Of a stretch of DNA of 32,000 bases, positions 1,462 through 21,112 are shown piece by piece. Within the stretch, counting starts at the first letter, position 1. Every line of letters starts with the position of its first letter. The position numbers and the translations under genes were made by a program. Origin of the DNA: Nitrososphaeria archaeon (GTDB lineage Archaea; Thermoproteota; Nitrososphaeria; Geothermarchaeales; JDFR-13); NCBI GenBank assembly GCA_027078545.1, contig JALWXN010000004.1, forward strand, positions 705,100 through 737,099, given 5' to 3'. The notes beneath the pieces were generated by a model that was not told where the DNA came from, searched no databases, and worked only from the letters and a program-made list of their open reading frames with translations.

Positions 1462-1876
1462 CCATCGTCACATCCTCACCAGGCTCCTCCAGGAGGTTGA
1501 AGAACCTCTTCACCCCTGGGCTGGCGAGGTATGCAAGGGGTATTAGGAGGAGGCCTGCAAATACTATGTTGCCTATACTGAATATACTTGTGAAGAGTAT
1601 GTTGAGTATCCCCGTGAGTATGAGTAGGACCTCCCCATACCAGGACCATATCCTCCCGTGGTAGAGGCCATAGCTCATCATGAATCCCAGGCCCGAGAGG
1701 ATCATGATCGTGGTGGATATGTATAGGACCTGTACAAGCCCAACTTCACCGTTATCTACCATCGTTATGGGGAGGAGTAGGGTTGTTATGGCGGTGAAGA
1801 ATAGTAGGGTGGAGAAGGCTATCTGTATGAGTGACAGGACCACTATGCCTGTTGGCCTCTCGACGCCCCTGTCCAT
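1451..1876 (-). CDS. Small integral membrane protein (4 predicted TM helices), tandem paralog
   Basis: 141-aa ORF that overlaps the downstream paralog by 11 nt. It has four hydrophobic segments and an acidic C-terminus (LLEEPGEDV). Confidence 0.6.
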   Translation of the reverse strand: MDRGVERPTGIVVLSLIQIAFSTLLFFTAITTLLLPITMVDNGEVGLVQVLYISTTIMILSGLGFMMSYGLYHGRIWSWYGEVLLILTGILNILFTSIFSIGNIVFAGLLLIPLAYLASPGVKRFFNLLEEPGEDVTMGGE

Positions 1877-1917
1877 GACAAGATGTATATCATGGCGAGT
1901 AGGTATAATAGTGTGGC

Positions 1918-2388
1918 ATGGAGGGGCTGGGGGATAGGTACGACGCCTCTGTCGAGGCCTATGAGAAGCTCTACTCGGGTATAAACACTAGGAAGTATAT
2001 GGTCCTCCTAGACAGGCTGGGTGATGGCGACCTACTCGAGATAGGTATTGGGACTGGCTACCACTGCGGACTTATCGGGGGCTACGGGGTAGGCGTGGAT
2101 ATAAGCCTCGAGAGTCTTAGGAGGGCGTCGGGGAGATGTGGAAACCTTGATCTTATCTATGGCGATGTTAGGCATGGCTTCCTCAGGCCCGGATTCAGGA
2201 GGGGCTTAGCAGTGTCGACATGCCACCACATCGGGCTAGATAAATGTATCGAGATACTGGGCAGGCTTACCGAGAGATGGGCGGCTGGGCTCCTAGCAAA
2301 ACTGGTTAGTGATGACCTCCTCCAGATGCTTAGCGAGGACTATGAGGTTGTGAGGCTCTGGGACGAGGTATTCATACTAGGGCCCTAG
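1918..2388 (+). CDS. Short class I SAM-dependent methyltransferase-like protein
   Basis: Motif I LLEIGIGTGY, followed by the acidic post-I strand VGVDIS and then LIYGDV. At 156 aa it is short for the fold, so the call is tentative. Confidence 0.5.
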   Translation: MEGLGDRYDASVEAYEKLYSGINTRKYMVLLDRLGDGDLLEIGIGTGYHCGLIGGYGVGVDISLESLRRASGRCGNLDLIYGDVRHGFLRPGFRRGLAVSTCHHIGLDKCIEILGRLTERWAAGLLAKLVSDDLLQMLSEDYEVVRLWDEVFILGP

Positions 2389-2519
2389 TGGGATCCCAAT
2401 TGGAGTCACTCCTCATCCCATGAAGGGTCAGAACCCTTTAGCGGTCATCTCCCACTCAAATAGGATTGGCTAGAGAGAAAATTATCCCGTTTTAACCCTG
2501 GAGGGTGGAATGTATTCTT

Positions 2520-2584
2520 GGCGATGATATAGGATCAACCGGCTGACCCCCAAGGGGGATGAAGAGTTTTACCCATGTTGAGCC
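2520..2584 (+). ncRNA. Candidate archaeal C/D-box sRNA (2'-O-methylation guide)
   Basis: In the 251-nt gap before the aminopeptidase: C-like AUGAUAU (2524-2530), a 12-nt guide, D' CUGA (2543-2546), C' AUGAAGA (2559-2565), a 12-nt guide, D-like UUGA (2578-2581). A terminal 3-bp stem joins ggc (2520-2522) to gcc (2582-2584). The C-box G6->A change is matched by D-box C1->U, which preserves the stem-II pair. The boxes are degenerate and no target was checked. Confidence 0.4.
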
Positions 2585-2603
2585 TTCAAGCAGATGGGAT
2601 GAA

Positions 2604-2615
2604 CCCTTTATTCCC
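2604..2615 (+). promoter_or_regulatory. Putative BRE/TATA element (CCCTTTATTCCC) for the aminopeptidase gene
   Basis: The TTTATT core is centred about 31 nt upstream of ATG 2640, which fits a leaderless transcript. The same 12-mer occurs about 36-39 nt upstream of the regulator gene at 19857. Confidence 0.3.
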
Positions 2616-2639
2616 GACCCCGGCTAATCACCTATATAC

Positions 2640-5111
2640 ATGGTCGTAGAGGCCTATCGAAAGGTGGGTAGGGGGTTCACCTTCCCCGGCTATGAAGCGA
2701 GGTTCACCCCTAGGCCCGGCTACCTACTCACACATGCATCGATAGAGGTGTGGATCAAGCCTGTGGAGAAGACCCTTGAGGGCGTGGTGGAGTATAAGAT
2801 CTCCTCGGGTGAGAGGGCTAGGAGGATCGAGCTCGACGCCTCGGAGATGGAGATCCTGGAGGTCCTGGTTGATGGGGAGCCGGTAGAGTTTAGATATACC
2901 GGTGAGAAGCTGGTAATACCCTTTACACCCCCTCTTACAAGGAGGATTAGGAGCCTCGTCGTCAGGTATCGGGTTGTGGATCCCAGGTATGGCCTCTACT
3001 TCATAGAGGACCCGCCTATGGTATATACCCAGGGGGAGACGATATGGACTAGCTACTGGCTCCCCACCTATAGGGAGCCTAACATGAGGATCTCCTTCGA
3101 CATGACTATCCACGCACCAGCCGAGTGGAGGGCCTTCTCAAACGGCGTCCTAGTCTCGGCCGAGAGGGTTGGGGGCGAGTCTATATGGAGATACAGCTTC
3201 AGCTACCCAGTCCCGACCTACCTCATAGCCTTCGCGGCGGGCCGCTTCACCGTTGAGAGGGAGGATTATAGGGGTATCCAGCTCGAGTATATAGTGGCTG
3301 AGGGTGAGGAGGCCAAGATAGAGCCTACCTTCAGGATGACCCGGGACATGATGAGGTTCTTCGAGGAGTGGCTCGGGGTACAGTATCCCTACCCGGTCTA
3401 TAGACAGGTCATGGTTAGGGACTTCGTCGTGGGTGGTATGGAGAACGTATCGATAACTATCCTTAATGACGCCACACTCATGGATGAGCATTCCAAGAAG
3501 GACTTCAGGGTCGAGGATCTCCTGAGCCATGAGCTTGCCCACCAGTGGTTCGGAGACCTAGTCACGTGTAGGGACTGGAGCCATATATGGATAAACGAGG
3601 GCTTCGCCACCTTCCTCAACCTACTGTATATCAGGCACTGGCTCGGGATGGATGAATACATATATAGCCTCTTAGGAGTCATGGATAGGTACCTCGAGGA
3701 GACGAGGAGGTATACAAGGCCGACTGTATATAGGGTGTATAGATATCCCGAGGAGCTCTTCGACAGGCACGTCTATGAACGGGGAGCCCTGATCCTAAAC
3801 ATGCTGATGAACCTACTGGGGGAGGAGGTCTTCAGGAAGGCTGTTAAGAAGTTCCTCAACCGTTACCGCTTCCAGAACGTGGATACTGAGGATCTCAGGA
3901 AGACTTTTGAGGAGGTCTCCGGCGAGGATCTCGACTGGTTCTTCGAGACATTCGTCTACAACGCGGGGCATATGGAGCTGGAGGTCTCTGTGGAGCCCCT
4001 GGAGGATCAGCAGGCTGTCAGGATAGACATATCACAGAGGCAGGGTGTGGATATGCCGGAGGTCTATAAAGTGCCTATCGAGGTGGAGGTTGTCGGGGAT
4101 GGCTGGAGCATAAGGAGGACATACAGGCTTGAGAAGAGGGATGAGCGGATAATAATGCCTGTTAGGAAGGGCTTCAAATATGTACTGGTGGATCCGGACT
4201 TCAAGTTGATGGCTAGGATCAGGCCTAAGTATCCCCTCGACATGCTGGGTGAGATACTCCTCGGCTCCAAGAGCACTTATTGGAGGCTCCTAGCCGCGAG
4301 GGCACTAGGGGAGAAGAAGGGGAAGAGGGTGGTCGACCTACTCGTAGAGGCGATAAGGAGGAGCGGCTTCTATGGTGTAGCCAAGGAGGCGGCGGTATCA
4401 CTCGGCCTCGAAGGCTCGGACTATGCGAAGAAGATGCTTAGGGAGCTGCTTGGGGAGGATCTACACCCCAGGGTGAGGGCCGCCCTAGTAAGATCCCTAG
4501 GAGGCTATAGGGACGAGGGTGATGCCCAGCTATTCATTGACATCCTTAGGGATCCCGGTGAGCCCTACGGGGTCAGGGCGGAGGCTGCCCAGGCCCTCGG
4601 CAAGACAAGGTATAGAGGGGGTATAGATGTGCTTAGATCCATACTTAATGAGTGGAGCTATGCATATGTTGTCCAGAGATATGCACTCAGAGGCCTAGCG
4701 GAGTATGACGATGACGAGGCCTTCCAGGAGATACTTAGGAGATCGAGGCCCGGGAACCCCCTACCGATAAGGGTGGAGGCTATTACACAGCTGGGCAGGT
4801 ATCCGGAGAGGAAGGAGGTCTACAGGGCTCTTGACGAGTATGCCTCGGACAGGCATGAGCGGGTCAGGAGGGCCGTGGTAGCCGCGGCTAGGCAGCTGAT
4901 GAATAGGCGGGCATTACCCATTATTGAGAAGATACTTAGGGACGAGGCCAACGGGTTCATAGCCAAGGCATGCCTCCTGGCAAGGAGAGAGGTTGAGGAG
5001 GCCCTGGAGAAGGGTGAGGAGTATAAGAGGCTTATAAAGAAGCTGGAGGAGATCGAGAGCCGCTGGAGAGACATATACAGTAGGATCGAGGTGCTCGACA
5101 TCCATGGATAG
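2640..5111 (+). CDS. M1-family zinc aminopeptidase (aminopeptidase N / tricorn-interacting-factor-like) with C-terminal HEAT-like repeats
   Basis: Exopeptidase motif VGGMENV. Zinc site HELAH-x18-E (HELAHQWFGDLVTCRDWSHIWINEGFATF). The C-terminal ~270 aa carry repeated VR..A..ALG-type HEAT/PBS-lyase-like units and a terminal coiled-coil-like EEYKRLIKKLEEIESRW. Confidence 0.9.
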   Translation: MVVEAYRKVGRGFTFPGYEARFTPRPGYLLTHASIEVWIKPVEKTLEGVVEYKISSGERARRIELDASEMEILEVLVDGEPVEFRYTGEKLVIPFTPPLTRRIRSLVVRYRVVDPRYGLYFIEDPPMVYTQGETIWTSYWLPTYREPNMRISFDMTIHAPAEWRAFSNGVLVSAERVGGESIWRYSFSYPVPTYLIAFAAGRFTVEREDYRGIQLEYIVAEGEEAKIEPTFRMTRDMMRFFEEWLGVQYPYPVYRQVMVRDFVVGGMENVSITILNDATLMDEHSKKDFRVEDLLSHELAHQWFGDLVTCRDWSHIWINEGFATFLNLLYIRHWLGMDEYIYSLLGVMDRYLEETRRYTRPTVYRVYRYPEELFDRHVYERGALILNMLMNLLGEEVFRKAVKKFLNRYRFQNVDTEDLRKTFEEVSGEDLDWFFETFVYNAGHMELEVSVEPLEDQQAVRIDISQRQGVDMPEVYKVPIEVEVVGDGWSIRRTYRLEKRDERIIMPVRKGFKYVLVDPDFKLMARIRPKYPLDMLGEILLGSKSTYWRLLAARALGEKKGKRVVDLLVEAIRRSGFYGVAKEAAVSLGLEGSDYAKKMLRELLGEDLHPRVRAALVRSLGGYRDEGDAQLFIDILRDPGEPYGVRAEAAQALGKTRYRGGIDVLRSILNEWSYAYVVQRYALRGLAEYDDDEAFQEILRRSRPGNPLPIRVEAITQLGRYPERKEVYRALDEYASDRHERVRRAVVAAARQLMNRRALPIIEKILRDEANGFIAKACLLARREVEEALEKGEEYKRLIKKLEEIESRWRDIYSRIEVLDIHG

Positions 5112-5210: not shown

Positions 5211-5771
5211 ATGAGGACGAGTAGAGCCATCATACTTTTGGCGCTGTTGACGCTCTTAGCACTGGTAGGTACTGCGGTCTTCGTCTACCTACCAGTGAAC
5301 GTCACCATCAATTCCGTAGGCCCACCAGTGATATTCCAGGCCGGTTCCAACGCTGGTGGAACTGATCTGGGCGGCAACACAATTCAAGTGACACTTGGGC
5401 CAAACTCGTCTAGTGCAACGATAGTTCTCCACCCAACGTATCAGAAGACATATTACCACGATATACTCCAGGTCTCTAACCCATCTCCCCCGGCTGGTGA
5501 CAACTACTACATAGGTATAAAGGTAGTATCACCCCTCACTGGAGCCGCCTTCTCATCAGCCGTTGCTAGGGTCTACGACTCTGCGAACAACCTCTTATTC
5601 ACAGCGGACCTGAAGACAGCTGGTACATATGGCTGGGCCACGCTTCTCCCAGATGGCCAGACATTCAGGATAGATATAGAGATAGTTATTACTGAGGGTG
5701 TCCCACTACCCAGCGGGTCGGTGACGTTCGAGCTAGTCTACAGCCCGCAGAGCGTGACGCCGCCACCGTAG
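5211..5771 (+). CDS. Secreted Cys-free beta-rich protein; candidate major subunit of a SipW-dependent (TasA/ABP/thread/cannula-like) filament
   Basis: N-terminal signal (RAIILLALLTLLALVGTA). The mature start VFVYLPVNVTINSVGPPV and the block VTLGPNSSSATI are shared with the next ORF. It has 2 N-x-S/T sequons and lies in an apparent operon with a signal peptidase I. The fold and family are not verified. Confidence 0.55.
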   Translation: MRTSRAIILLALLTLLALVGTAVFVYLPVNVTINSVGPPVIFQAGSNAGGTDLGGNTIQVTLGPNSSSATIVLHPTYQKTYYHDILQVSNPSPPAGDNYYIGIKVVSPLTGAAFSSAVARVYDSANNLLFTADLKTAGTYGWATLLPDGQTFRIDIEIVITEGVPLPSGSVTFELVYSPQSVTPPP

Positions 5772-5776
5772 TAGCG

Positions 5777-6985
5777 ATGCTCTCCAGGATAGTGGCTATA
5801 CCCCTCATACCAATACTTTTTTTCATACCATATGTCCTGGGTGCAGAGTTTAGCTACTATCCTACATCCCTCACCCTTAATTCCGTCTCTCCCCCCATAT
5901 CACTGTATGATCCTGGGGTGTCGGGGGTAACGGTCTCCCTAGGGCCTAACTCGACTAGTGCCTCTATAACTGTTAAGGCTAGCGCACAGCCCTTCGATAT
6001 AGTGGCTAATAGCGACTTTATAGGGCCTAGCCCCTGGCTATTCATCCCAGGCACGGACCTGATTAGTGCCACGGTTCTCCCGAGCTACTTAGGTAGGGTG
6101 GGTGTTGCTAATGTCTCTGGATCAGGTTCTCTCTTCACGGGATATACGGACTCGGCGTTCCTCTATCAGCAGATTACTTGGCCGACGACGCCTATCCTAT
6201 TCGCCAATGTATATCTCGAGGCCTGTGTAGAGTATGCAGTGACCTCGGGCTTCTCAATACTTCTCCTCGACGCCACCGTATTCGTGGTTGATGCCAATAC
6301 GTTGGCCGTGGTAGACTCGATAACCTTCATCCTAGACGTAGGATCATCATCCACCTGTACATGGAACACCTATACTGGTGGCCTGAACGTGGGTGCTTAT
6401 ACCCCTGGTGGGACGTACTACTTCCTTATCAGGTATAGGGTGCAGAGCCTCTTTACACTCTTCGGTGGCTCGTACTATGCCAGGTTCTATACCGATCTGG
6501 CGAACATCACGGTTGCACCGGCTAACCCCACCTTCCTAGGTATATTCCTACTTGCCAATGCGTCTACAGGTATTTATAACGCCTCGCTGAGCCTCGTATC
6601 AGCCAGCTTCACCGGCACCGTGGATGCCAATATATGGCTGAGGAACAATACGGTCCAGGTCCAGTCCAGCTCGATCACTATATCGGCCTCCACGATAGTC
6701 ACCAGCCAGACATCAGAGCTCATCGTTACAACGGTTCCACCTGGATATTATAGTCTCGAGATGTGGCTGGACACCACGATCTCGCCTGGTGCCTCGGCCA
6801 CCCTAAACCTGGTCCTCAAGTATAGGATTCAGGACGGTGTTTATGTCGAGTACCCCATCCTGCTCAATATTGTTGACCCTCCCGATAGGGGTGGCCAGCC
6901 TAGTGAACCCCCTGATAAGATCTTCAAGATCTTATCTATTGATCCGCCCCCATATATTGAGTTCTTGAGGAGCTATGATCCGTAG
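5777..6985 (+). CDS. Secreted, sequon-rich beta-rich protein; candidate minor/tip or anchor subunit paralogous at its N-terminus to the 5211 product
   Basis: Signal peptide (IVAIPLIPILFFIPYVLGA). The blocks EFSYYPTSLTLNSVSPPI and VSLGPNSTSASI match the upstream protein. It has 6 N-x-S/T sequons and V/T/S/Y-rich composition. It starts 6 nt after a double stop (tagtag) and overlaps the signal peptidase gene by 11 nt. Confidence 0.55.
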   Translation: MLSRIVAIPLIPILFFIPYVLGAEFSYYPTSLTLNSVSPPISLYDPGVSGVTVSLGPNSTSASITVKASAQPFDIVANSDFIGPSPWLFIPGTDLISATVLPSYLGRVGVANVSGSGSLFTGYTDSAFLYQQITWPTTPILFANVYLEACVEYAVTSGFSILLLDATVFVVDANTLAVVDSITFILDVGSSSTCTWNTYTGGLNVGAYTPGGTYYFLIRYRVQSLFTLFGGSYYARFYTDLANITVAPANPTFLGIFLLANASTGIYNASLSLVSASFTGTVDANIWLRNNTVQVQSSSITISASTIVTSQTSELIVTTVPPGYYSLEMWLDTTISPGASATLNLVLKYRIQDGVYVEYPILLNIVDPPDRGGQPSEPPDKIFKILSIDPPPYIEFLRSYDP

Positions 6986-7388
6986 GCCGGGGCCCACGAC
7001 ACTTATCGTACTAGTATTCGCCATACTGGTTCTCGGACGCTTCGTGGGTAGCCCGGTTGCAGCTGTGGTGATTGTTGGGCCCTCTATGGAGCCTACCCTG
7101 AACGTGGGTGACCTGGTCATTCTCCGCTGGGCCGATCCGGAGGTTGGGGATATAGTCCTCTGGTGTAACACCCTGATGAACTGTGTTCTACACCGTGTTG
7201 TTGAGGTGGGCAAGGACTATATAGTTACGAGGGGAGACGCCAACGACATCAATGACCCTCCCGTCCTGAGGGAGCAGGTTAGATATGAGGCCCTACTATC
7301 GATACCCAGGTATCTATGGATACCCGGCCTAGCCATACTGGTTATAGGTGCACATCTATATGAGAAGAGGAAGGAGGGGGGCGATTAA
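6975..7388 (+). CDS. Signal peptidase I, archaeal/ER Sec11-SipW type (S26B)
   Basis: N-terminal TM, Ser box GPSMEPTL, His box VLHRVV, box E TRGDANDINDP and a C-terminal TM (YLWIPGLAILVIGAHLY). Confidence 0.85.
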   Translation: MIRRPGPTTLIVLVFAILVLGRFVGSPVAAVVIVGPSMEPTLNVGDLVILRWADPEVGDIVLWCNTLMNCVLHRVVEVGKDYIVTRGDANDINDPPVLREQVRYEALLSIPRYLWIPGLAILVIGAHLYEKRKEGGD

Positions 7389-8127
7389 GGGGCTCGTAGC
7401 TGGCGGCCTAGGCCTATGGCTCTACAGCTTTTACGAGCCAGTCCTAAGGATAGAGTTAGTGAGGCATAGGATTGACCTTGACCTGGGGCTGGAGATCCTC
7501 TTCGTGACTGACACCCATCTCCACGGTGTCCCGGGTAGGGAGGATAGCGTCATAAAGCTTGTTGAGGATCTCTCTAGGGAGGTAGACCTCACGATACTGG
7601 GGGGAGACATGTATGACGAGTTCTCGGAGAGCCTGGAGAGCTTCTCATCCCTCCTAGATGCGATAAGTGGCGAGGCTATCATGGTTCTCGGTAACCATGA
7701 ACACTGGGCTGCCGATAGGTATCCCCTCGAAGAGACTATAGAGATGGCTGAGTCGAGAGGCGTGACTGTGCTTAGGAACGGGGTGGTGGAGTATAAAGGT
7801 CTCCATATCGGAGGGGTAGACTGGTATGGTGATAACCCGCAGCTGGCGAGGAGGTACTACAGGGACGTTGGGAGTGTAGATATCCTGGTATCCCACACAC
7901 CCGACATACTTGGTGATGCGGAGGTCGATGCACGCCTCGTATTGGCTGGCCATACGCATGGTGGCCAGATACTGGGTCCACTTGGGCTGATAACGAATAG
8001 TAGGCATGGCTATGTAAGCGGCTTCTATAGGAGGGGTGAGGCCCTGATGTATGTCTCTAGGGGGGCTGGGGAGATTATTCCCTTCCGCCTATTGACGCCC
8101 CGGGAGGTCACATTACTAAGCGTCTAG
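7348..8127 (+). CDS. Membrane-anchored calcineurin-like metallophosphoesterase
   Basis: Motifs FVTDTHLH (DxH), GGDMYDE (GD), GNHEHW (GNHE), SHTPD and AGHTHGGQ (GHxH), plus one N-terminal TM. ATG 7360 is an alternative start. It overlaps the 3' end of the peptidase gene. Confidence 0.85.
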   Translation: MHIYMRRGRRGAIKGLVAGGLGLWLYSFYEPVLRIELVRHRIDLDLGLEILFVTDTHLHGVPGREDSVIKLVEDLSREVDLTILGGDMYDEFSESLESFSSLLDAISGEAIMVLGNHEHWAADRYPLEETIEMAESRGVTVLRNGVVEYKGLHIGGVDWYGDNPQLARRYYRDVGSVDILVSHTPDILGDAEVDARLVLAGHTHGGQILGPLGLITNSRHGYVSGFYRRGEALMYVSRGAGEIIPFRLLTPREVTLLSV

Positions 8128-13415: not shown

Positions 13416-14012
13416 ATGGATCAGAAGGTTATTGCCGGTGTAGCGATCGTCATACTCATAGCTGCCATCGCGGGATACTTCATGATGAGTAGCCCCGCCG
13501 GTGAAACAGGCGGGGGTGAGGCTGGTGAGGAGACATACATAGTTATCGGCTACTACTGGGGCTTCAAGATATACGACTCCAACTACAACCCTGTGGACAA
13601 GATCATGGTTAAGAAGGGAACGACCCTAAAGATAATATTCCTCAACGCCAGATCCTTCGCCGAGGACTTCTATGGCCCACTGGAGGAGGAGAGTAAGCAG
13701 AAAGGCGTAGGTGGCCTCGACAACGGGCCATTGGAGCAGAAGATCATGGAGGCTTTGGAGACTAACTTGGTTGACCATGGCCTACAGATAATTGGATATG
13801 GCGTGAGTGTAGCTACGAACTATAAGGCTTTCAGCGGAACTGCCAAGACACTCCAGGAGTTCTTCCAGAACGAGCCTCAGGACGCTATTAACCAGCACAC
13901 AGTAGTCTTCAAGGCCGATAAGACGGGTGTATTCGACTTCGTCTGCTACGTCGTCTGTGGCTATGGCCACTCCTTCATGAGCCTAAAGGGCGCTCTCCAG
14001 GTGTACGAGTAG
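13416..14012 (+). CDS. Membrane-anchored CuA-type cupredoxin (cytochrome oxidase subunit II-like), orphan
   Basis: One N-terminal TM. There is an upstream His in LVDHGLQI and a complete CuA motif, C-x3-C-x3-H-x2-M, in FVCYVVCGYGHSFM (compare the mitochondrial CG..HSFM). GGAGGTGA lies 8 nt before the ATG. Confidence 0.75.
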   Translation: MDQKVIAGVAIVILIAAIAGYFMMSSPAGETGGGEAGEETYIVIGYYWGFKIYDSNYNPVDKIMVKKGTTLKIIFLNARSFAEDFYGPLEEESKQKGVGGLDNGPLEQKIMEALETNLVDHGLQIIGYGVSVATNYKAFSGTAKTLQEFFQNEPQDAINQHTVVFKADKTGVFDFVCYVVCGYGHSFMSLKGALQVYE

Positions 14013-16116: not shown

Positions 16117-16926
16117 ATGCCTGGGGTCTCGGCCGAGACCTACAGCTTCATGGATGGCTCGGGAGTAGACTACTTGGCGGATAACCTGGGAGAGTTTAGC
16201 GACTTGATGGATAAGGTTGATGTTATACGTGGCTCATTCACACTGGAGGGTAACAGCTTCAGCATAGAGGTAGAGATGGCTGATAAGCCCCTAGTGGGGG
16301 CCGAGGCGAGCAGCTATGCAAGCAACGCCTCAGGCCTACTGATGCGCATACTGATGATGTTCAGGATGGATGGACCCGGCGGCGAGGCTGTTGACCTAAG
16401 CGTCAGAACCCTATATACCTATAGCGAGGCACCCAGTGGGGATGGCTACGTGTTCACAACCTTCTACTGGGAGCTGCTGGTTGACTACTATAGGGTCGAC
16501 GAGGGTTATGGCAACTACAGCGTCATGGGCAATACGATGATCTTCGCTGGCGAGGCTACAAACACATCTATACTAGACGGCTCGACACCGAACCTGCTGA
16601 ACGTCACAGCCCTATTCAACTGGCAGGGTATCTACCTAGCTGTGGACTATGCAGGGGAGGGATGGGAAGCTCCCGACACCGCGCCTGTAGACACACCCGT
16701 CGTGGATCCCGACACGACGCCGGGAGTAGTCGATGATACAGACCAGGGAGTACCTAGTGATACTGATGATGCTGTGGAAGATAGTCAGGAGAAAGGTGGA
16801 GAGGAGAAAACTGGTGTGGAGACGGGTGATACGGGTATGTGGATACTCATCGGACTAGTGGCGGTTGGAATTGTAGGTGCCGGTGTAGCGCTTTACATCC
16901 TGAGGAGTGGTGGGCTATCCAAGTAG
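16117..16926 (+). CDS. Hypothetical cell-surface protein (acidic Thr/Pro/Asp stalk + C-terminal TM anchor); 5' end unresolved
   Basis: 269-aa ORF from ATG 16117. It has a stalk (PDTAPVDTPVVDPDTTPGVVDDTD) and a C-terminal helix (MWILIGLVAVGIVGAGVALYIL). The in-frame upstream sequence encodes a signal peptide but has no canonical start codon (see findings). Confidence 0.6.
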   Translation: MPGVSAETYSFMDGSGVDYLADNLGEFSDLMDKVDVIRGSFTLEGNSFSIEVEMADKPLVGAEASSYASNASGLLMRILMMFRMDGPGGEAVDLSVRTLYTYSEAPSGDGYVFTTFYWELLVDYYRVDEGYGNYSVMGNTMIFAGEATNTSILDGSTPNLLNVTALFNWQGIYLAVDYAGEGWEAPDTAPVDTPVVDPDTTPGVVDDTDQGVPSDTDDAVEDSQEKGGEEKTGVETGDTGMWILIGLVAVGIVGAGVALYILRSGGLSK

Positions 16927-17517
16927 CCTAGCCATATACTCCTCAAGCCCCTTGAAGATCATCTCAGCAGCTATCGAGGCAACTATTATCGACATTAGGC
17001 GGCCGAACGTCTTTATAACTCCTGGCCCCAGTATGCTGTAAAGCTTATCAACATACCTAAGCATCAGGTAGGTAGCCCCCACGACTAAGTAGCCAGCAAG
17101 GAGGACTAGATATACGGGGTAGACCGTTGTTAGGAGGATCAGGGTCGTTATCGTGCCCGGCCCGACTAGCAGGGGTGTGGATATAGGCACCACCGCCATC
17201 TCCTCTGGCGAGATCTTCTTAGCCTTTGGCAGGCCGCCGAGCATATCTATGGCTATCGCCATGAGCAGGACTCCACCGCCTATACGTGTAGCCGCTACAC
17301 TCACGCCGAAGAACATCAGGATGTAGGCCCCTCCAATGGTGAATACGGTTATCAATACTGCGCATACAAGGGCTATGCTCCTCACGATCCTCAGGTGCCT
17401 ATCACGGTCGAGGCCGGACATGAAGCTGAGGTATAGGGGTAGGATCCCAGGTGGATCCATGATGGCGAAGATCTGTATGAAGGCCGTGGCCAGCGCTATA
17501 AAAGTCACCGGGTCCAT
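16915..17517 (-). CDS. MarC-family (UPF0056) integral membrane protein
   Basis: From ATG 17517 the product starts MDPVTFIALATAFIQIFAIMDPPGILPLYLSF, typical of the MarC family, and has 6 TM segments. The ORF track extends to 17682, but those extra 55 aa are Cys/Pro-rich and overlap the divergent oxidase gene. Confidence 0.8.
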   Translation of the reverse strand: MDPVTFIALATAFIQIFAIMDPPGILPLYLSFMSGLDRDRHLRIVRSIALVCAVLITVFTIGGAYILMFFGVSVAATRIGGGVLLMAIAIDMLGGLPKAKKISPEEMAVVPISTPLLVGPGTITTLILLTTVYPVYLVLLAGYLVVGATYLMLRYVDKLYSILGPGVIKTFGRLMSIIVASIAAEMIFKGLEEYMARLLG

Positions 17518-17670
17518 GATACACCACTCCCTGGGCCCATGGCGTTGATACGGATGATTAGTAATTAAATCATCCCCTGGGCATGGTTTAGAAAACATAT
17601 ACTCCAAAGGTCTTAGGGATATACCATATATACAGATAGGGAGGAAGTATATACATGCGGGGGGTTCGAG

Positions 17671-18231
17671 ATGGAGGTCCAATGGGCCGTCGAGATGTTC
17701 TACTACAGCCTCATAACGACCTACACCATAGTCATCCTACTATTCATCTACAAGACCCGTAAACCCCCCAAGATATCGACCGACGGCGGAGTCCACCAGG
17801 GGATGGATAGGCGGGAGAAGATATGGATGTACAGCCTGATAACAGTGGCAATAATAGGCAACATAATCTTCTTTAGTCCACTCATACCATCGATGCAGTA
17901 CAACATCTACCTTGACGAGGAGCCTGTGAAGACAATCGTGATAAGGATGGAGGACCATAGATTCATCCTGCCTGAGGAGCCTATAGTCATACCCCTGGGC
18001 GAGCCTGTGGAGTTCAAGGTGTATAGCGAGGATCTTACCTATGGCTTCGGGGTCTTCAGGGAGGATGGTATGCTAGTCTTCCAGATGCAGGTCGTGCCCG
18101 GCTATGAGAATAGGCTGGTCTGGATATTCACCGAGCCTGGCAACTACACGATCAGGAGTACTGAGTACAGTGGGCCGGAGCATCCCTACATGTATATCGA
18201 GGACGCGATAGTCGTGGAGGAGGTGGGTTAG
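17671..18231 (+). CDS. Heme-copper oxidase subunit II-like cupredoxin protein without a CuA site
   Basis: Two N-terminal TM helices plus a cupredoxin domain that can be aligned by eye to ba3-type subunit II. The CuA ligands are replaced: TYGFGV for xHGFxV, and S-x3-S-x3-H-x2-M (RSTEYSGPEHPYM) for C-x3-C-x3-H-x2-M. Confidence 0.75.
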   Translation: MEVQWAVEMFYYSLITTYTIVILLFIYKTRKPPKISTDGGVHQGMDRREKIWMYSLITVAIIGNIIFFSPLIPSMQYNIYLDEEPVKTIVIRMEDHRFILPEEPIVIPLGEPVEFKVYSEDLTYGFGVFREDGMLVFQMQVVPGYENRLVWIFTEPGNYTIRSTEYSGPEHPYMYIEDAIVVEEVG

Positions 18232-18232
18232 C

Positions 18233-19765
18233 ATGGGGCCTAGGGAGAAGCTAGCCCTTAAATACGTCTTGGCAGGGGTCTTCTGGCTAGGCGTCGCAGG
18301 TATAGAGGGCATATTAATGAGGCTCAGGATACTTAACCTCCTCACCGAGATCTATACACCTGAGCATTACTACGCCATGATGACTGTCCACCCCTTTGTA
18401 GGCATATATGGCTGGGCCTACATGGCCGTCATGGGTGCCTTCTACTACCTAGTCCCGGTCGTGCTTAAGAAGGATCTCTATAGTGAGTGGGTCGCCAACC
18501 TGGCCTGGTATGTGATGATGGCCGGTGTATTGATAACCTGGCTCTCAGGCTTCCTATTCAGCTATAGCCCCCTATACACGCTCTACTGGCCCCTACCAGT
18601 CGTTGAGTATAACGGTATCCAGCAGATAGTCTTCGGCTTCGGCAGCGCACTCATCTTCATCTCCGTACTCATGTTCTTCTTCAACATGTTCGCCACGATC
18701 TTCCTCCCCCAGAGGGGCGCGGGTGGAGCTGGCTACGTGGCTAAGGAGCTCCTCACACTCGCCTTCAACCTTGATAAGCTGAAGGCTAAGACGAAGGGTA
18801 TTAAGGAGTATCTACCAAGGGTGAATAACTACCCAGTCTTCGTAGTGGGCGTCTTCAGGGGCTGTGTAGACACCACTCTTAACGCTATTGTCCTACTACT
18901 AGTATCCCTCACGATAGGTGTCTATGGGATAACGGAGGTTCTGGGCAACGAGCTGAGCCCCAGCCTTATAGACCCGCTTATCTATAAGAACGTCTTCTGG
19001 TGGGGCCTCGACCTCATAGCGGATGGCAACGTCCTCATCTTCACAGCGGCAACCTGGTACTTCCTGGTCCCACTACTTACTAACCAGCCACTATTCGGGG
19101 AGAACGTGGTTAGGAGCGTGATCCTGGCCGACCTCGTGATAAGCCTCTTCGTCTGGAACCACCACATGATGAGTGATACTCCACAGCCACTATTCCTACT
19201 CGTCCAGGGCCAGATATTCACATGGGGTGAGTTGATAACCATGGGGCTAACCATGTTCGCCGTGCTGATGACGATCTGGAGGGCTAGGCCGGTAGAGTAT
19301 AGCCCAGCCCTACTGGCGATAGTCCTCTCGATCCTCGGCTACGCCATGGGTGGCTCGGCAGGTATGATACAGGCCAACATAGCTATGAACAGGTATTTCC
19401 ACAATACCCAGTGGGTCATAGGTATACATGGCCATATCCAGCTACTGGCTGGTCTTAGCCTAACGATCTTCGCGGCGATCTACGCACTAGCCCCGATCCT
19501 CACTGGTAAGGAGATGGATAGGAGGCTGTCATACCTACACATTGTCCTCTTCTTCGTGGGGGCTGTGGTGATGGGTCTGAGTCAGGGAGCGGCTGGGGCC
19601 GCTGGTATGCTTAGGAGGACGCTGTACTTCAACGGTGAGTACGCTGGATACATGACTGTTGCCGCCATCGGGTCCTTCCTAATGGCGGTAGGCTTCCTAA
19701 TATTCCTATACAACTTCGTCAAGACCTACGGCTTCAAGAGTGTGATAGAGGTTCTAAAGCCATAG
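18233..19765 (+). CDS. Heme-copper oxidase superfamily subunit I, atypical active site
   Basis: About 12-13 TM segments. Present: helix-II His (TVHPF), WNHHMM and HNTQWVIGIHGH, resembling B-family subunit I. The helix-VI FWW-GHPxVY motif reads FWWGLDLIADGN, and there is no His anywhere between TVHPF and WNHH. Confidence 0.85.
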   Translation: MGPREKLALKYVLAGVFWLGVAGIEGILMRLRILNLLTEIYTPEHYYAMMTVHPFVGIYGWAYMAVMGAFYYLVPVVLKKDLYSEWVANLAWYVMMAGVLITWLSGFLFSYSPLYTLYWPLPVVEYNGIQQIVFGFGSALIFISVLMFFFNMFATIFLPQRGAGGAGYVAKELLTLAFNLDKLKAKTKGIKEYLPRVNNYPVFVVGVFRGCVDTTLNAIVLLLVSLTIGVYGITEVLGNELSPSLIDPLIYKNVFWWGLDLIADGNVLIFTAATWYFLVPLLTNQPLFGENVVRSVILADLVISLFVWNHHMMSDTPQPLFLLVQGQIFTWGELITMGLTMFAVLMTIWRARPVEYSPALLAIVLSILGYAMGGSAGMIQANIAMNRYFHNTQWVIGIHGHIQLLAGLSLTIFAAIYALAPILTGKEMDRRLSYLHIVLFFVGAVVMGLSQGAAGAAGMLRRTLYFNGEYAGYMTVAAIGSFLMAVGFLIFLYNFVKTYGFKSVIEVLKP

Positions 19766-19782: not shown

Positions 19783-19788
19783 TTTTTT
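19783..19788 (+). terminator. Oligo-T terminator candidate after the oxidase operon
   Basis: T6 run 18 nt after the TAG at 19763-19765, preceded by a C-rich tract. Confidence 0.4.
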
Positions 19789-19856: not shown

Positions 19857-20456
19857 GTGATGAGTATATCCGAGGTCTCGATAGATATTGCTAGGAGCAG
19901 GTGTAGGCTCTACAGGAAGTATGGGAGCCGTATAAAGATCCTGTCGATCACGAATAATGGGGAGCGTATCATCCACCTCGTCACATGTCCAAAGGACCTG
20001 GTGGGTAATATCAGGGATGAGGAGGATCTCAAGGTACTGGGTCTAAACCTCGTCGATAACGAGGCGAGTGTATGGTGCCTATCCAGGGGCTGCGATGTAT
20101 GTAAGCCGCTTGTGGATGAGGGCTGTATAATCCTGGATGGCTATATAGGGCAGGACGGCTCGATGAACATAACCTTCCTATCCCCCAGCGACAAGACTAC
20201 TGAGAAGATCTTCAGGATCTATAGGGAGCTGGGTATCGAGTATGAGGTGAGGTATACGAGGAGGTATGGGAAGAGTAGGATACTGACCGATAGGCAGGAG
20301 CAGGTCCTATACCTGGCGTATAAAATGGGGTTCTTCGACTTCCCCAGGAAGACCTCGCTGAAGGAGCTGAGTGAGATACTGGGTATTAAGGAGGCGACCC
20401 TCAGCGAGATCCTGAGGAGGGGTGTGAAGAAGGTTATCCAGGAATACTTCAAATAG
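19857..20456 (+). CDS. Transcriptional regulator with C-terminal HTH_10 (Bat-type) DNA-binding domain and Cys-rich N-terminal domain
   Basis: The C-terminus LTDRQEQVLYLAYKMGFFDFPRKTSLKELSEILGIKEATLSEILRRGVKKV matches the HTH_10 pattern. The N-terminal domain carries C-x4-C-x2-C-x7-C (WCLSRGCDVCKPLVDEGC). Confidence 0.8.
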   Translation: MMSISEVSIDIARSRCRLYRKYGSRIKILSITNNGERIIHLVTCPKDLVGNIRDEEDLKVLGLNLVDNEASVWCLSRGCDVCKPLVDEGCIILDGYIGQDGSMNITFLSPSDKTTEKIFRIYRELGIEYEVRYTRRYGKSRILTDRQEQVLYLAYKMGFFDFPRKTSLKELSEILGIKEATLSEILRRGVKKVIQEYFK

Positions 20457-20554: not shown

Positions 20555-21112
20555 ATGAGCCGGGGAGATGGGCTTAGGTATGGACTCCTAGCCAGCATAG
20601 CAGCCTTCATAATTATCGAGTACCTCTTGATACAGGTCTTCCTATACGGTGTCTACACCCCCTATGCCTGGCCAAACATAATACTCATCTCGAGCCTCAT
20701 ACCCATAGGGCTTGTAGCCTATATAGGCTATCTATCCTGGCTGGTTGAGGGTAGGGATGTGTTTAAATACGCCAGTGCACTGGCCCTCCTGCTTGGCTCG
20801 GCCTCCATCGCCACTGGCTATATGGGGGAGCCGGTATCCCTATACCTCCTCTTCACCGCATACTTCACCGAGGTTGTCGTCGGGCCCTTCCTCATGAGGG
20901 GGTTCGAGACCTATGACTGGCTAGGTGCCAGGCTCTTCCTGGTCGGTATCATGGGCTTCGTCCTCAGCCTCCCACTGGTCTCACTGGCGAACGAGTTTGC
21001 CCTTGTACCCTTCGCCGCCAACCTGTTGAAGGGATATGGACTCATAAGGATCTATCTAAAGGCTGTTGAGAAGCCTATACCTGTTGAGGAGGCGGTCGAG
21101 GCGGTTGCCTAG
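20555..21112 (+). CDS. Hypothetical integral membrane protein (5-6 TM)
   Basis: 185-aa ORF, almost entirely hydrophobic segments. No family recognised. Confidence 0.5.
   Translation: MSRGDGLRYGLLASIAAFIIIEYLLIQVFLYGVYTPYAWPNIILISSLIPIGLVAYIGYLSWLVEGRDVFKYASALALLLGSASIATGYMGEPVSLYLLFTAYFTEVVVGPFLMRGFETYDWLGARLFLVGIMGFVLSLPLVSLANEFALVPFAANLLKGYGLIRIYLKAVEKPIPVEEAVEAVA

Follow-up and report, generated by a model that had tools for sequence, protein, structure and literature searches.

The question raised by the 32,000-nucleotide stretch of archaeal DNA analysed here (contig JALWXN010000004.1, positions 705,100 to 737,099; hereafter the window) is what a heme-copper oxidoreductase (HCO) might do when it has kept the fold and the heme ligands of an oxidase and has lost a histidine of its active-site metal, the tyrosine cross-linked to that histidine, and the entire CuA site. 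The enzyme is encoded by two adjacent genes, one for subunit II and one for subunit I (Table 1), and its sequence assigns it to gNOR, an HCO family already named in the literature. Taken as a whole, the locus is on balance probably best explained as encoding a two-subunit, quinol-fed HCO homologue of the gNOR type, in which a heme and a non-heme metal held by two histidines and one or two aspartates would reduce nitric oxide (NO).

Subunit I has the oxidase fold but not the helix VI histidine

Subunit I belongs to the HCO superfamily, since it has the 12-helix COX1 fold and the histidines for the low-spin heme (helices II and X) and the high-spin heme (helix X) are in place. Its AlphaFold2 (AF2) model reached a predicted local distance difference test score of 82.7 and a predicted template modelling score of 0.86, and in Foldseek it matched A-type subunit I structures with template modelling scores of about 0.8. 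The complete list of histidines in the protein comprises residues 45, 53, 310, 311, 390, 399, 401 and 436. Residue conservation was counted in an alignment of 217 distinct homologues, in which H53, the H310-H311 pair, H390 and H401 are invariant and H399 is kept in 216. The H310-H311 pair matches the HH of caa3, aa3-600 and ba3 in every alignment made, while the alignment of the C-terminal histidines with those of ba3 marks H399 as the putative proximal high-spin heme ligand and H401 as the putative second ligand of the low-spin heme.

Between TVH53PF and WNH310H311, the translation contains no histidine at all. Therefore, at most two histidines are able to reach the non-heme metal, whatever register is adopted for helix VI, and the helix VI CuB histidine is certainly absent from subunit I. 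Where oxidases read WW-x-G-H-P-x-V-Y, the protein instead has the signature FWWGLDLIADGN, and no tyrosine occurs in this motif between W257 and Y276. Its two aspartates, D260 and D264, are invariant and lie one helical turn apart, with the likewise invariant W256 at position i-4, an arrangement that resembles the W-H-Y face of oxidases. The preliminary description of this locus had reported these motifs with their coordinates, the histidines of TVHPF and WNHHMM and the histidine-free stretch between them, and all of these statements proved correct on translation and against the full list of histidines.

The helix VI substitution is a family signature

The aspartates of helix VI are not a peculiarity of the window sequence. 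A protein database search returned about 2000 relatives of subunit I, and at least 559 stretches in species-representative genomes encode one. Motifs were counted in 240 retrieved proteins and 80 genomic loci (the latter numbered L001 and so on where they need to be told apart): the core WWG[LF]D[LM][IV]ADG is present in 240/240 proteins and 80/80 loci, the single departure being one GFD, and the subunit II/subunit I gene pair was found in all 75 loci having upstream DNA. The aspartate pair of helix VI is thus a signature of the family. Proteins of Sulfurimonas, Sulfurovum and Persephonella, retrieved with a Campylobacterales protein of the locus set as the query, are 40-42% identical over their full length and read FWWGLDL[IV]ADGL, and proteins from metagenome-assembled genomes (MAGs) of Methylomirabilota are 57% identical to the window subunit I. 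No exact copy of the window protein was found in the contig index.

At closer range, the window is collinear with WAKB01000012.1, from a Candidatus Geothermarchaeota MAG, at 88% DNA identity over 21.5 kb. The subunit I protein is 98% identical to that of the nearest MAG (L001), as compared with 83-97% for the neighbouring proteins, which indicates purifying selection.

Subunit II is a cupredoxin without CuA

Subunit II begins with two hydrophobic segments, after which comes a cupredoxin domain, and the protein contains no cysteine. Its best relatives in the PDB are the CuA domains of the ba3 oxidase from Thermus thermophilus (2CUA, 2LLN and 1EHK_B; phmmer E ~5e-6 to 8e-6). In the phmmer alignment, Y124 is paired with H114 of ba3, S163 with C149, E165 with Q151, S167 with C153, H171 with H157, and M174 with M160, in agreement with the series Tyr, Ser, Ser, His and Met that had earlier been read by eye at the CuA ligand positions.

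The pattern is family-wide: Ser, Ser and Tyr stand in the places of two Cys and a His that bind CuA in the oxidases. The motif [RK]STEYSG is kept in 74 of the 76 related subunit II sequences aligned, and the position of the first CuA histidine reads T-Y-G-[FL]. One of the two departures from [RK]STEYSG is an unrelated COX2-like open reading frame (ORF) picked up from locus L027; the other, from locus L003, retains its cysteines and is the sole true exception among the family sequences aligned.

The operon is assigned to gNOR

gNOR was described as the first, and is defined as the only, HCO family in which an active-site histidine is replaced by aspartate; its secondary subunit has a cupredoxin fold without the CuA residues, quinol oxidation is considered probable, and the family has bacterial and archaeal members, most of them from sulfidic environments, and was placed beside the B family (Murali, Hemp and co-workers, PNAS 2024, PMC11214002). 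In the table of PMC8756737, the tyrosine position of gNOR is likewise given as Asp, and the family is named there for Sulfurimonas, Sulfurovum and Persephonella (Sievert 2008, as cited in PMC8756737). Methylomirabilis oxyfera is also reported to have a gNOR (Damo_1118-1119), although no homologue labelled with this species was found among the top 120 matches.

The operon is assigned to this family because the published traits recur in it, that is, Asp at the probable histidine and tyrosine positions, a cupredoxin subunit without CuA and a proposed quinol donor, and because proteins of Sulfurimonas, Sulfurovum and Persephonella carrying this motif belong to the family. The grouping rests on this shared motif and on pairwise identity with proteins of the named genera. 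By this assignment the active site is odd but not new, and the option of a novel HCO family, raised in the preliminary description, was wrong. Its statement that the gNOR of Hemp and Gennis replaces a CuB histidine with Asp is borne out by PMC11214002, and the family match lends support to its reading of the enzyme as NOR-like, with a His2-carboxylate site and no CuA. NO reduction by gNOR, this copy included, is a prediction.

In comparison with the gNOR consensus, no distinguishing feature was found in the window copy. The two agree in the aspartates at the probable histidine and tyrosine positions, the CuA-less subunit II and the two-gene operon. Candidate quinol-site residues are present in the window copy, and the family has both bacterial and archaeal members, with sulfidic or hydrothermal habitats. 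What marks the window copy is its Geothermarchaeota-like lineage, in which a literature search for heme-copper enzymes found nothing, and an adjacent HTH_10 regulator, the latter being typical of archaeal gNOR members. A substitution of a heme-ligand histidine by Glu, claimed for gNOR in a preprint (FIND; bioRxiv 10.1101/592808), was not seen: H53, H399 and H401 are all present here and conserved in the relatives sampled (H399 in 216/217).

The exceptional locus L003 lies in a Thermofilaceae MAG (JALURH010000216.1, positions 1713-3827). Its subunit II holds the full CuA ligand set (DVTHGFGVF ... RCTEYCGFRHSEM), and its subunit I carries the gNOR motif FWWGLDLVADGN. This set contradicts the absence of CuA as a trait of gNOR, and L003 looks like either an evolutionary intermediate or a cytochrome- or cupredoxin-dependent variant. 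Also present at this locus is a 660-aa ORF (5542-7524) that by eye is molybdopterin oxidoreductase-like, with a Cys-rich N-terminus.

The register of helix VI

Which residue takes the place of the missing histidine depends on how helix VI is aligned. The ungapped anchor DPL-x5-FWW pairs D260 with H233 and D264 with Y237 of ba3, and phmmer against caa3 agrees, with D260 at the His and D264 at the Tyr position. Two results speak against this pairing. With both phmmer and hmmsearch, the alignment to aa3-600 is moved by one residue, and hhalign of the family profile with ba3, whose sequence was verified against the PDB, places N266 opposite the histidine after a gap of 6 residues. The four formal alignments made with these three programs give three pairings, and alignment alone does not decide between them. 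The confidence of the AF2 model is lower at residues 261-270 and 300-330, which make up the active-site region. The earlier statement that Asp falls at both positions therefore stands as far as the invariance of the two residues, the anchor and the caa3 alignment are concerned, but not in the registers obtained with aa3-600 and hhalign.

N266 was rejected as a metal ligand, as this position is Leu in the whole Campylobacterales clade. The downstream anchors, PLFG and HH, lie one residue farther off than in ba3 and caa3, and there must consequently be an insertion somewhere between W256 and P286. Placing D260 at the His and D264 at the Tyr position turns on an indel of a single residue within or close to helix VI, and the lower AF2 confidence at residues 261-270 fits an irregularity just past D260. 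Together with published gNOR modelling, which agrees, the sequence makes it quite likely that D260 takes the histidine position.

Comparison with oxidases and NO reductases

The ba3 oxidase (1EHK, 1XME) has the subunit II most similar to that of the window among PDB structures, and it shares with subunit I the DPL-x5-FWW start of helix VI, the HH pair, the HNT-W motif and the H-x-H heme ligands. It differs in having H233 and the cross-linked Y237 in place of D260 and D264, in its complete CuA site and in its use of cytochrome c. The marks of a B-family O2 reductase, namely three CuB histidines, a cross-linked His-Tyr in helix VI and CuA in subunit II, are accordingly lacking in the window enzyme, which has neither the His nor the Tyr of helix VI and carries other residues at the Cys, Cys and His positions of CuA. 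Furthermore, subunit I scores higher against A-family structures than against ba3, whereas Murali et al. placed gNOR beside the B family.

The top PDB sequence match of the family profile is an A-family quinol oxidase, aa3-600 of Bacillus subtilis. This enzyme and bo3 of Escherichia coli also have a cupredoxin subunit II without CuA. In the profile alignment with aa3-600, E25 falls opposite the Asp of GVDGLMMR and H45 opposite the His of SNHYNE, which we take to be the menaquinol-site residues D74 and H94. Unlike the window enzyme, both oxidases keep three CuB histidines and the His-Tyr cofactor and reduce O2, and their quinol-site Arg and Glu/Gln are not conserved in the window family.

The third group for comparison is formed by the NO reductases cNOR and qNOR. 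In the 2010 crystal structure of cNOR from Pseudomonas aeruginosa, H207 of helix VI is followed one turn below by E211, and E280 is contributed by helix VIII; the carboxylates around the non-heme iron, FeB, are E211, E215 and E280. The window enzyme resembles cNOR and qNOR in lacking the Tyr cofactor and in its predicted non-heme Fe site, and qNOR also uses quinol. As in cNOR, a helix VI carboxylate (here D264) lies one turn below the candidate ligand, and a carboxylate is found on helix VIII (here E333). D260, D264 and E333 may thus recall the FeB carboxylates of cNOR, a setting that would favour Fe(II) and NO reduction. However, cNOR and qNOR have a subunit I related to the C family, hold FeB with three His and one Glu and possess a heme c subunit or a fused N-terminal domain, whereas here only two histidines are available and the partner is a cupredoxin. 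No NorB chain of cNOR or qNOR was found at E<=0.001 among the 60 matches listed for the family profile against the PDB, which makes the likeness to these enzymes convergent at best.

E333 forms part of a polar stripe on helix VIII, together with T330 and T336, that is a candidate proton path or, through E333, a candidate active-site carboxylate; the K-path residues on helix VIII of oxidases and Glu280 of cNOR serve as models for such roles. A second polar stretch, PVFVVGVFRGCVDTTLNA, lies on helix V (window 18833-18886, residues 201-218). It is unusually polar and near-invariant (R209 in 215/217, D213 in 214/217 and N217 in 212/217). Ahead of it lies an insertion particular to the family, about 40 residues long and containing short helices (residues 160-200). 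The polar stretch may provide an alternative path for protons or substrate.

Proposed mechanism and alternative explanations

If the enzyme is a quinol-fed NO reductase, membrane quinol would most likely deliver electrons to a site on helices I and II of subunit I, where E25 (212/212 in the family alignment) and H45 would bind the quinol, and subunit II would serve as a structural cupredoxin from which all CuA chemistry has been lost. From the quinol, electrons would pass to the bis-His low-spin heme (H53 and H401) and on to a binuclear centre composed of the high-spin heme (H399) and a non-heme metal bound by H310, H311 and D260, with D264 as either a fourth ligand or a second-shell carboxylate. 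A site of two histidines and a carboxylate, with no redox-active tyrosine, would favour Fe(II) and two-electron chemistry, and the reaction is proposed to be 2 NO + 2 e- + 2 H+ -> N2O + H2O. Physiologically, the enzyme would probably detoxify NO or support NO respiration on a small scale, controlled by the adjacent Cys-containing HTH_10 regulator.

Several further observations weigh against this scheme. H45 is present in only 140 of 217 family members (65%), and the quinol-site Arg of bo3 and aa3-600 is missing from the family alignment, as is the Glu. No nir (nirK, nirS), nor, nos (nosZ) or nar gene was found in the window, and no denitrification neighbours were seen in most archaeal loci of the family. 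Strict anaerobes (Bathyarchaeia, Methanomethylicia, Anaerolineae) make up many of the carriers, and these are not known to us to denitrify. Finally, no report of a purified or assayed gNOR was found in the literature searched, which extends to 2026.

Some of these points would be expected if the enzyme instead reduced something other than NO in a detoxifying or scavenging role, for instance trace O2, H2O2 or another small oxidant, by a 2-His 2-Asp chemistry new to the superfamily. This alternative appears unlikely, but it is the most probable of the rivals. It accords with the absence of nir and nos genes beside the operon, in the window as in most archaeal loci, with the missing activity report for any gNOR, with the hemerythrin-domain neighbours (O2- or NO-binding) in 14/80 loci, and with how common the family is among strict anaerobes and at sulfidic or hydrothermal sites (PMC11214002). 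D260, D264, H310 and H311 would together form a two-His two-carboxylate site unlike that of any structurally characterised HCO, and because the family is abundant in strict anaerobes with no nir or nos genes nearby, there is a small chance that its true job is not respiratory NO reduction. In that event the enzyme might, for example, scavenge NO or O2 in a sulfide-tolerant manner or reduce a small molecule in some new reaction, and the name gNOR would be a misnomer. Against this alternative, four-electron reduction of O2 in the superfamily depends on the His-Tyr cofactor, and the window enzyme lacks it; moreover, every biochemically characterised branch without the tyrosine reduces NO, namely the well-characterised cNOR and qNOR as well as eNOR and bNOR.

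Less likely still is an enzyme dependent on a cytochrome or cupredoxin, with a soluble or membrane-anchored donor docking on subunit II. The CuA-type cupredoxin encoded 3.7 kb upstream of the operon had been put forward as such a donor in the preliminary description, and this 198-aa protein does have a full C-x3-C-x3-H-x2-M loop. In addition, the match to the quinol site is only partial, and the intact CuA ligand set in subunit II of L003 would point to an ancestral route through CuA. Yet the cupredoxin gene lies near the operon in just one of the 80 loci, that of the closely related sister MAG L001, and nothing thus supports this protein as the donor. Moreover, subunit II of the window has no redox centre that could relay electrons, and E25 is invariant and pairs with the quinol-site Asp of aa3-600.

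A catalytically dead oxidase relic with a structural or sensory role, as the loss of one metal ligand, the Tyr cofactor and the entire CuA site might suggest, is highly improbable given that the heme ligands and the HH pair are kept in 216-217 of 217 homologues, that D260 and D264 are invariant across archaeal and bacterial phyla, that subunit I is more similar to its L001 counterpart than is any neighbouring gene product compared, and that relatives are encoded in so many species-representative genomes.

Operon structure and genomic context

Table 1. Positions of the features discussed, numbered from the first letter of the window.
Feature	Position	Strand	Remarks
Subunit II gene	17671-18231	+	186 aa; Pfam COX2, E=1.9e-5
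Subunit I gene	18233-19765	+	510 aa; Pfam COX1, E=3.3e-65, full length
Divergent intergenic region, AT-rich	17519..17670	+	~150 bp, upstream of subunit II; sequence read
T6 run	19783..19788	+	18 nt past the subunit I stop codon; sequence read
CuA-loop counterpart RSTEYSGPEHPYM	18154-18192	+	Subunit II, residues 162-174
Candidate quinol-site residues E25, H45	18305..18367	+	Subunit I, helices I and II; E25 18305-18307, H45 18365-18367
H53 (TVHPF)	18389..18391	+	Low-spin heme axial ligand; 217/217; pairs with the oxidase helix II heme His
Helix VI signature FWWGLDLIADGN	18995-19030	+	Subunit I, residues 255-266
D260	19010-19012	+	217/217; helix VI CuB His position (alignment-dependent)
D264	19022-19024	+	217/217; cross-linked Tyr position (alignment-dependent)
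H310-H311 (WNHHMM)	19160..19165	+	Helix VII active-site metal ligand pair; 217/217
Polar stripe T330, E333, T336	19220..19240	+	Helix VIII; each 217/217
HNTQWVIGIHGH	19400..19435	+	H390 (HNT motif), H399, H401; aligned to ba3 VVHNTAWVPGHFH
HTH_10 transcription regulator	19857..20456	+	Pfam HTH_10, E=4.9e-20; Cys16, C79-x2-C82
Orphan CuA-type cupredoxin	13416-14012	+	198 aa, membrane-anchored; loop FVCYVVCGYGHSFM (C-x3-C-x3-H-x2-M) and upstream Asp-His

The stop codon of subunit II and the start codon of subunit I are separated by 1 nt (TAG-C-ATG), and the two genes are translationally coupled. The AT-rich region preceding them is presumed to be an archaeal promoter and contains TATA-like elements, ATATAT at 17626 and TATATA at 17648, the latter 23 nt before the ATG. 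The T6 run downstream of subunit I probably acts as an archaeal terminator, in which case the operon would be bicistronic. In NCBIfam no specific model exists for either subunit, and every oxidase match fell far under its cut-off.

The ORF listed for MarC on the opposite strand (16915-17682) has a TTG start and overlaps the beginning of subunit II. As its Pfam match begins only at residue 64, the true start is probably the Met at about 17518, so that the divergent intergenic region of about 150 bp remains. Besides MarC, the neighbours in the window comprise thiolases, a beta-lactamase-like protein, an ABC-2 exporter, an F420 ligase and ETF/ETF-QO genes. The orphan cupredoxin has only weak COX2/CoxB matches, and no subunit I gene adjoins it. 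The 185-aa membrane protein at 20555-21112 was considered as a third subunit and rejected, as it is conserved only in L001 and is unrelated to a gene found downstream of the pair in Sulfurimonas. That gene, of about 197 aa and with no Pfam match, is conserved directly downstream in Sulfurimonas and Persephonella, and is absent from the window.

The neighbours that recur across related loci are HTH_10 regulators (14 archaeal loci), hemerythrin-domain proteins (14), Crp/Fnr regulators (7), UbiA-type prenyltransferases (7) and DUF166 (5); the hemerythrin-domain genes lie within 5 kb of the operon in their 14/80 loci, and the Crp/Fnr regulators are seen in 7/80. The HTH_10 homologue adjoins the gene pair downstream in Geothermarchaeota and upstream or divergently elsewhere, and it is probably a dedicated regulator of the operon. 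The closer homologues keep its Cys16 and C79-x2-C82, a hint of a sensor for redox state or NO that is based on a metal or Fe-S centre. The link to NO provided by gene context is weak and indirect.

Two arrangements in other genomes may be recorded here. In Caldarchaeales/Nitrososphaerota MAGs (L085 and L086, 6811-12627; also L007, L009 and L010), the HTH_10, subunit II and subunit I genes stand between those for ribosomal proteins L1 and L10, inside the Spt5-L11-L1-L10-L12 cluster. This odd site suggests that the three genes move as a cassette. In Sulfurimonas (L083, 5256-12245; L081, 9414-12255), the pair is divergent from a cluster encoding a Mo-oxidoreductase, a NIR_SIR nitrite/sulfite reductase and a nitrate-type ABC transporter.

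Implications

Conceptually, nothing new emerges from a textbook gNOR operon in a Geothermarchaeota-like hydrothermal archaeon, and the finding, which will not surprise a specialist, is useful for annotation and as a candidate for the first biochemical study. Annotation pipelines call the gNOR subunit I a 'cbb3-type cytochrome c oxidase subunit I', and to take this label as a sign of aerobic respiration in such lineages would be a mistake. Much of the N2O produced in the environment may stem from several predicted NO reductase families, gNOR among them. A thermostable archaeal copy is a possible practical target for a first structure and activity assay of the family, and, together with its CuA-retaining relative L003, the window copy offers good material on the true function of gNOR.

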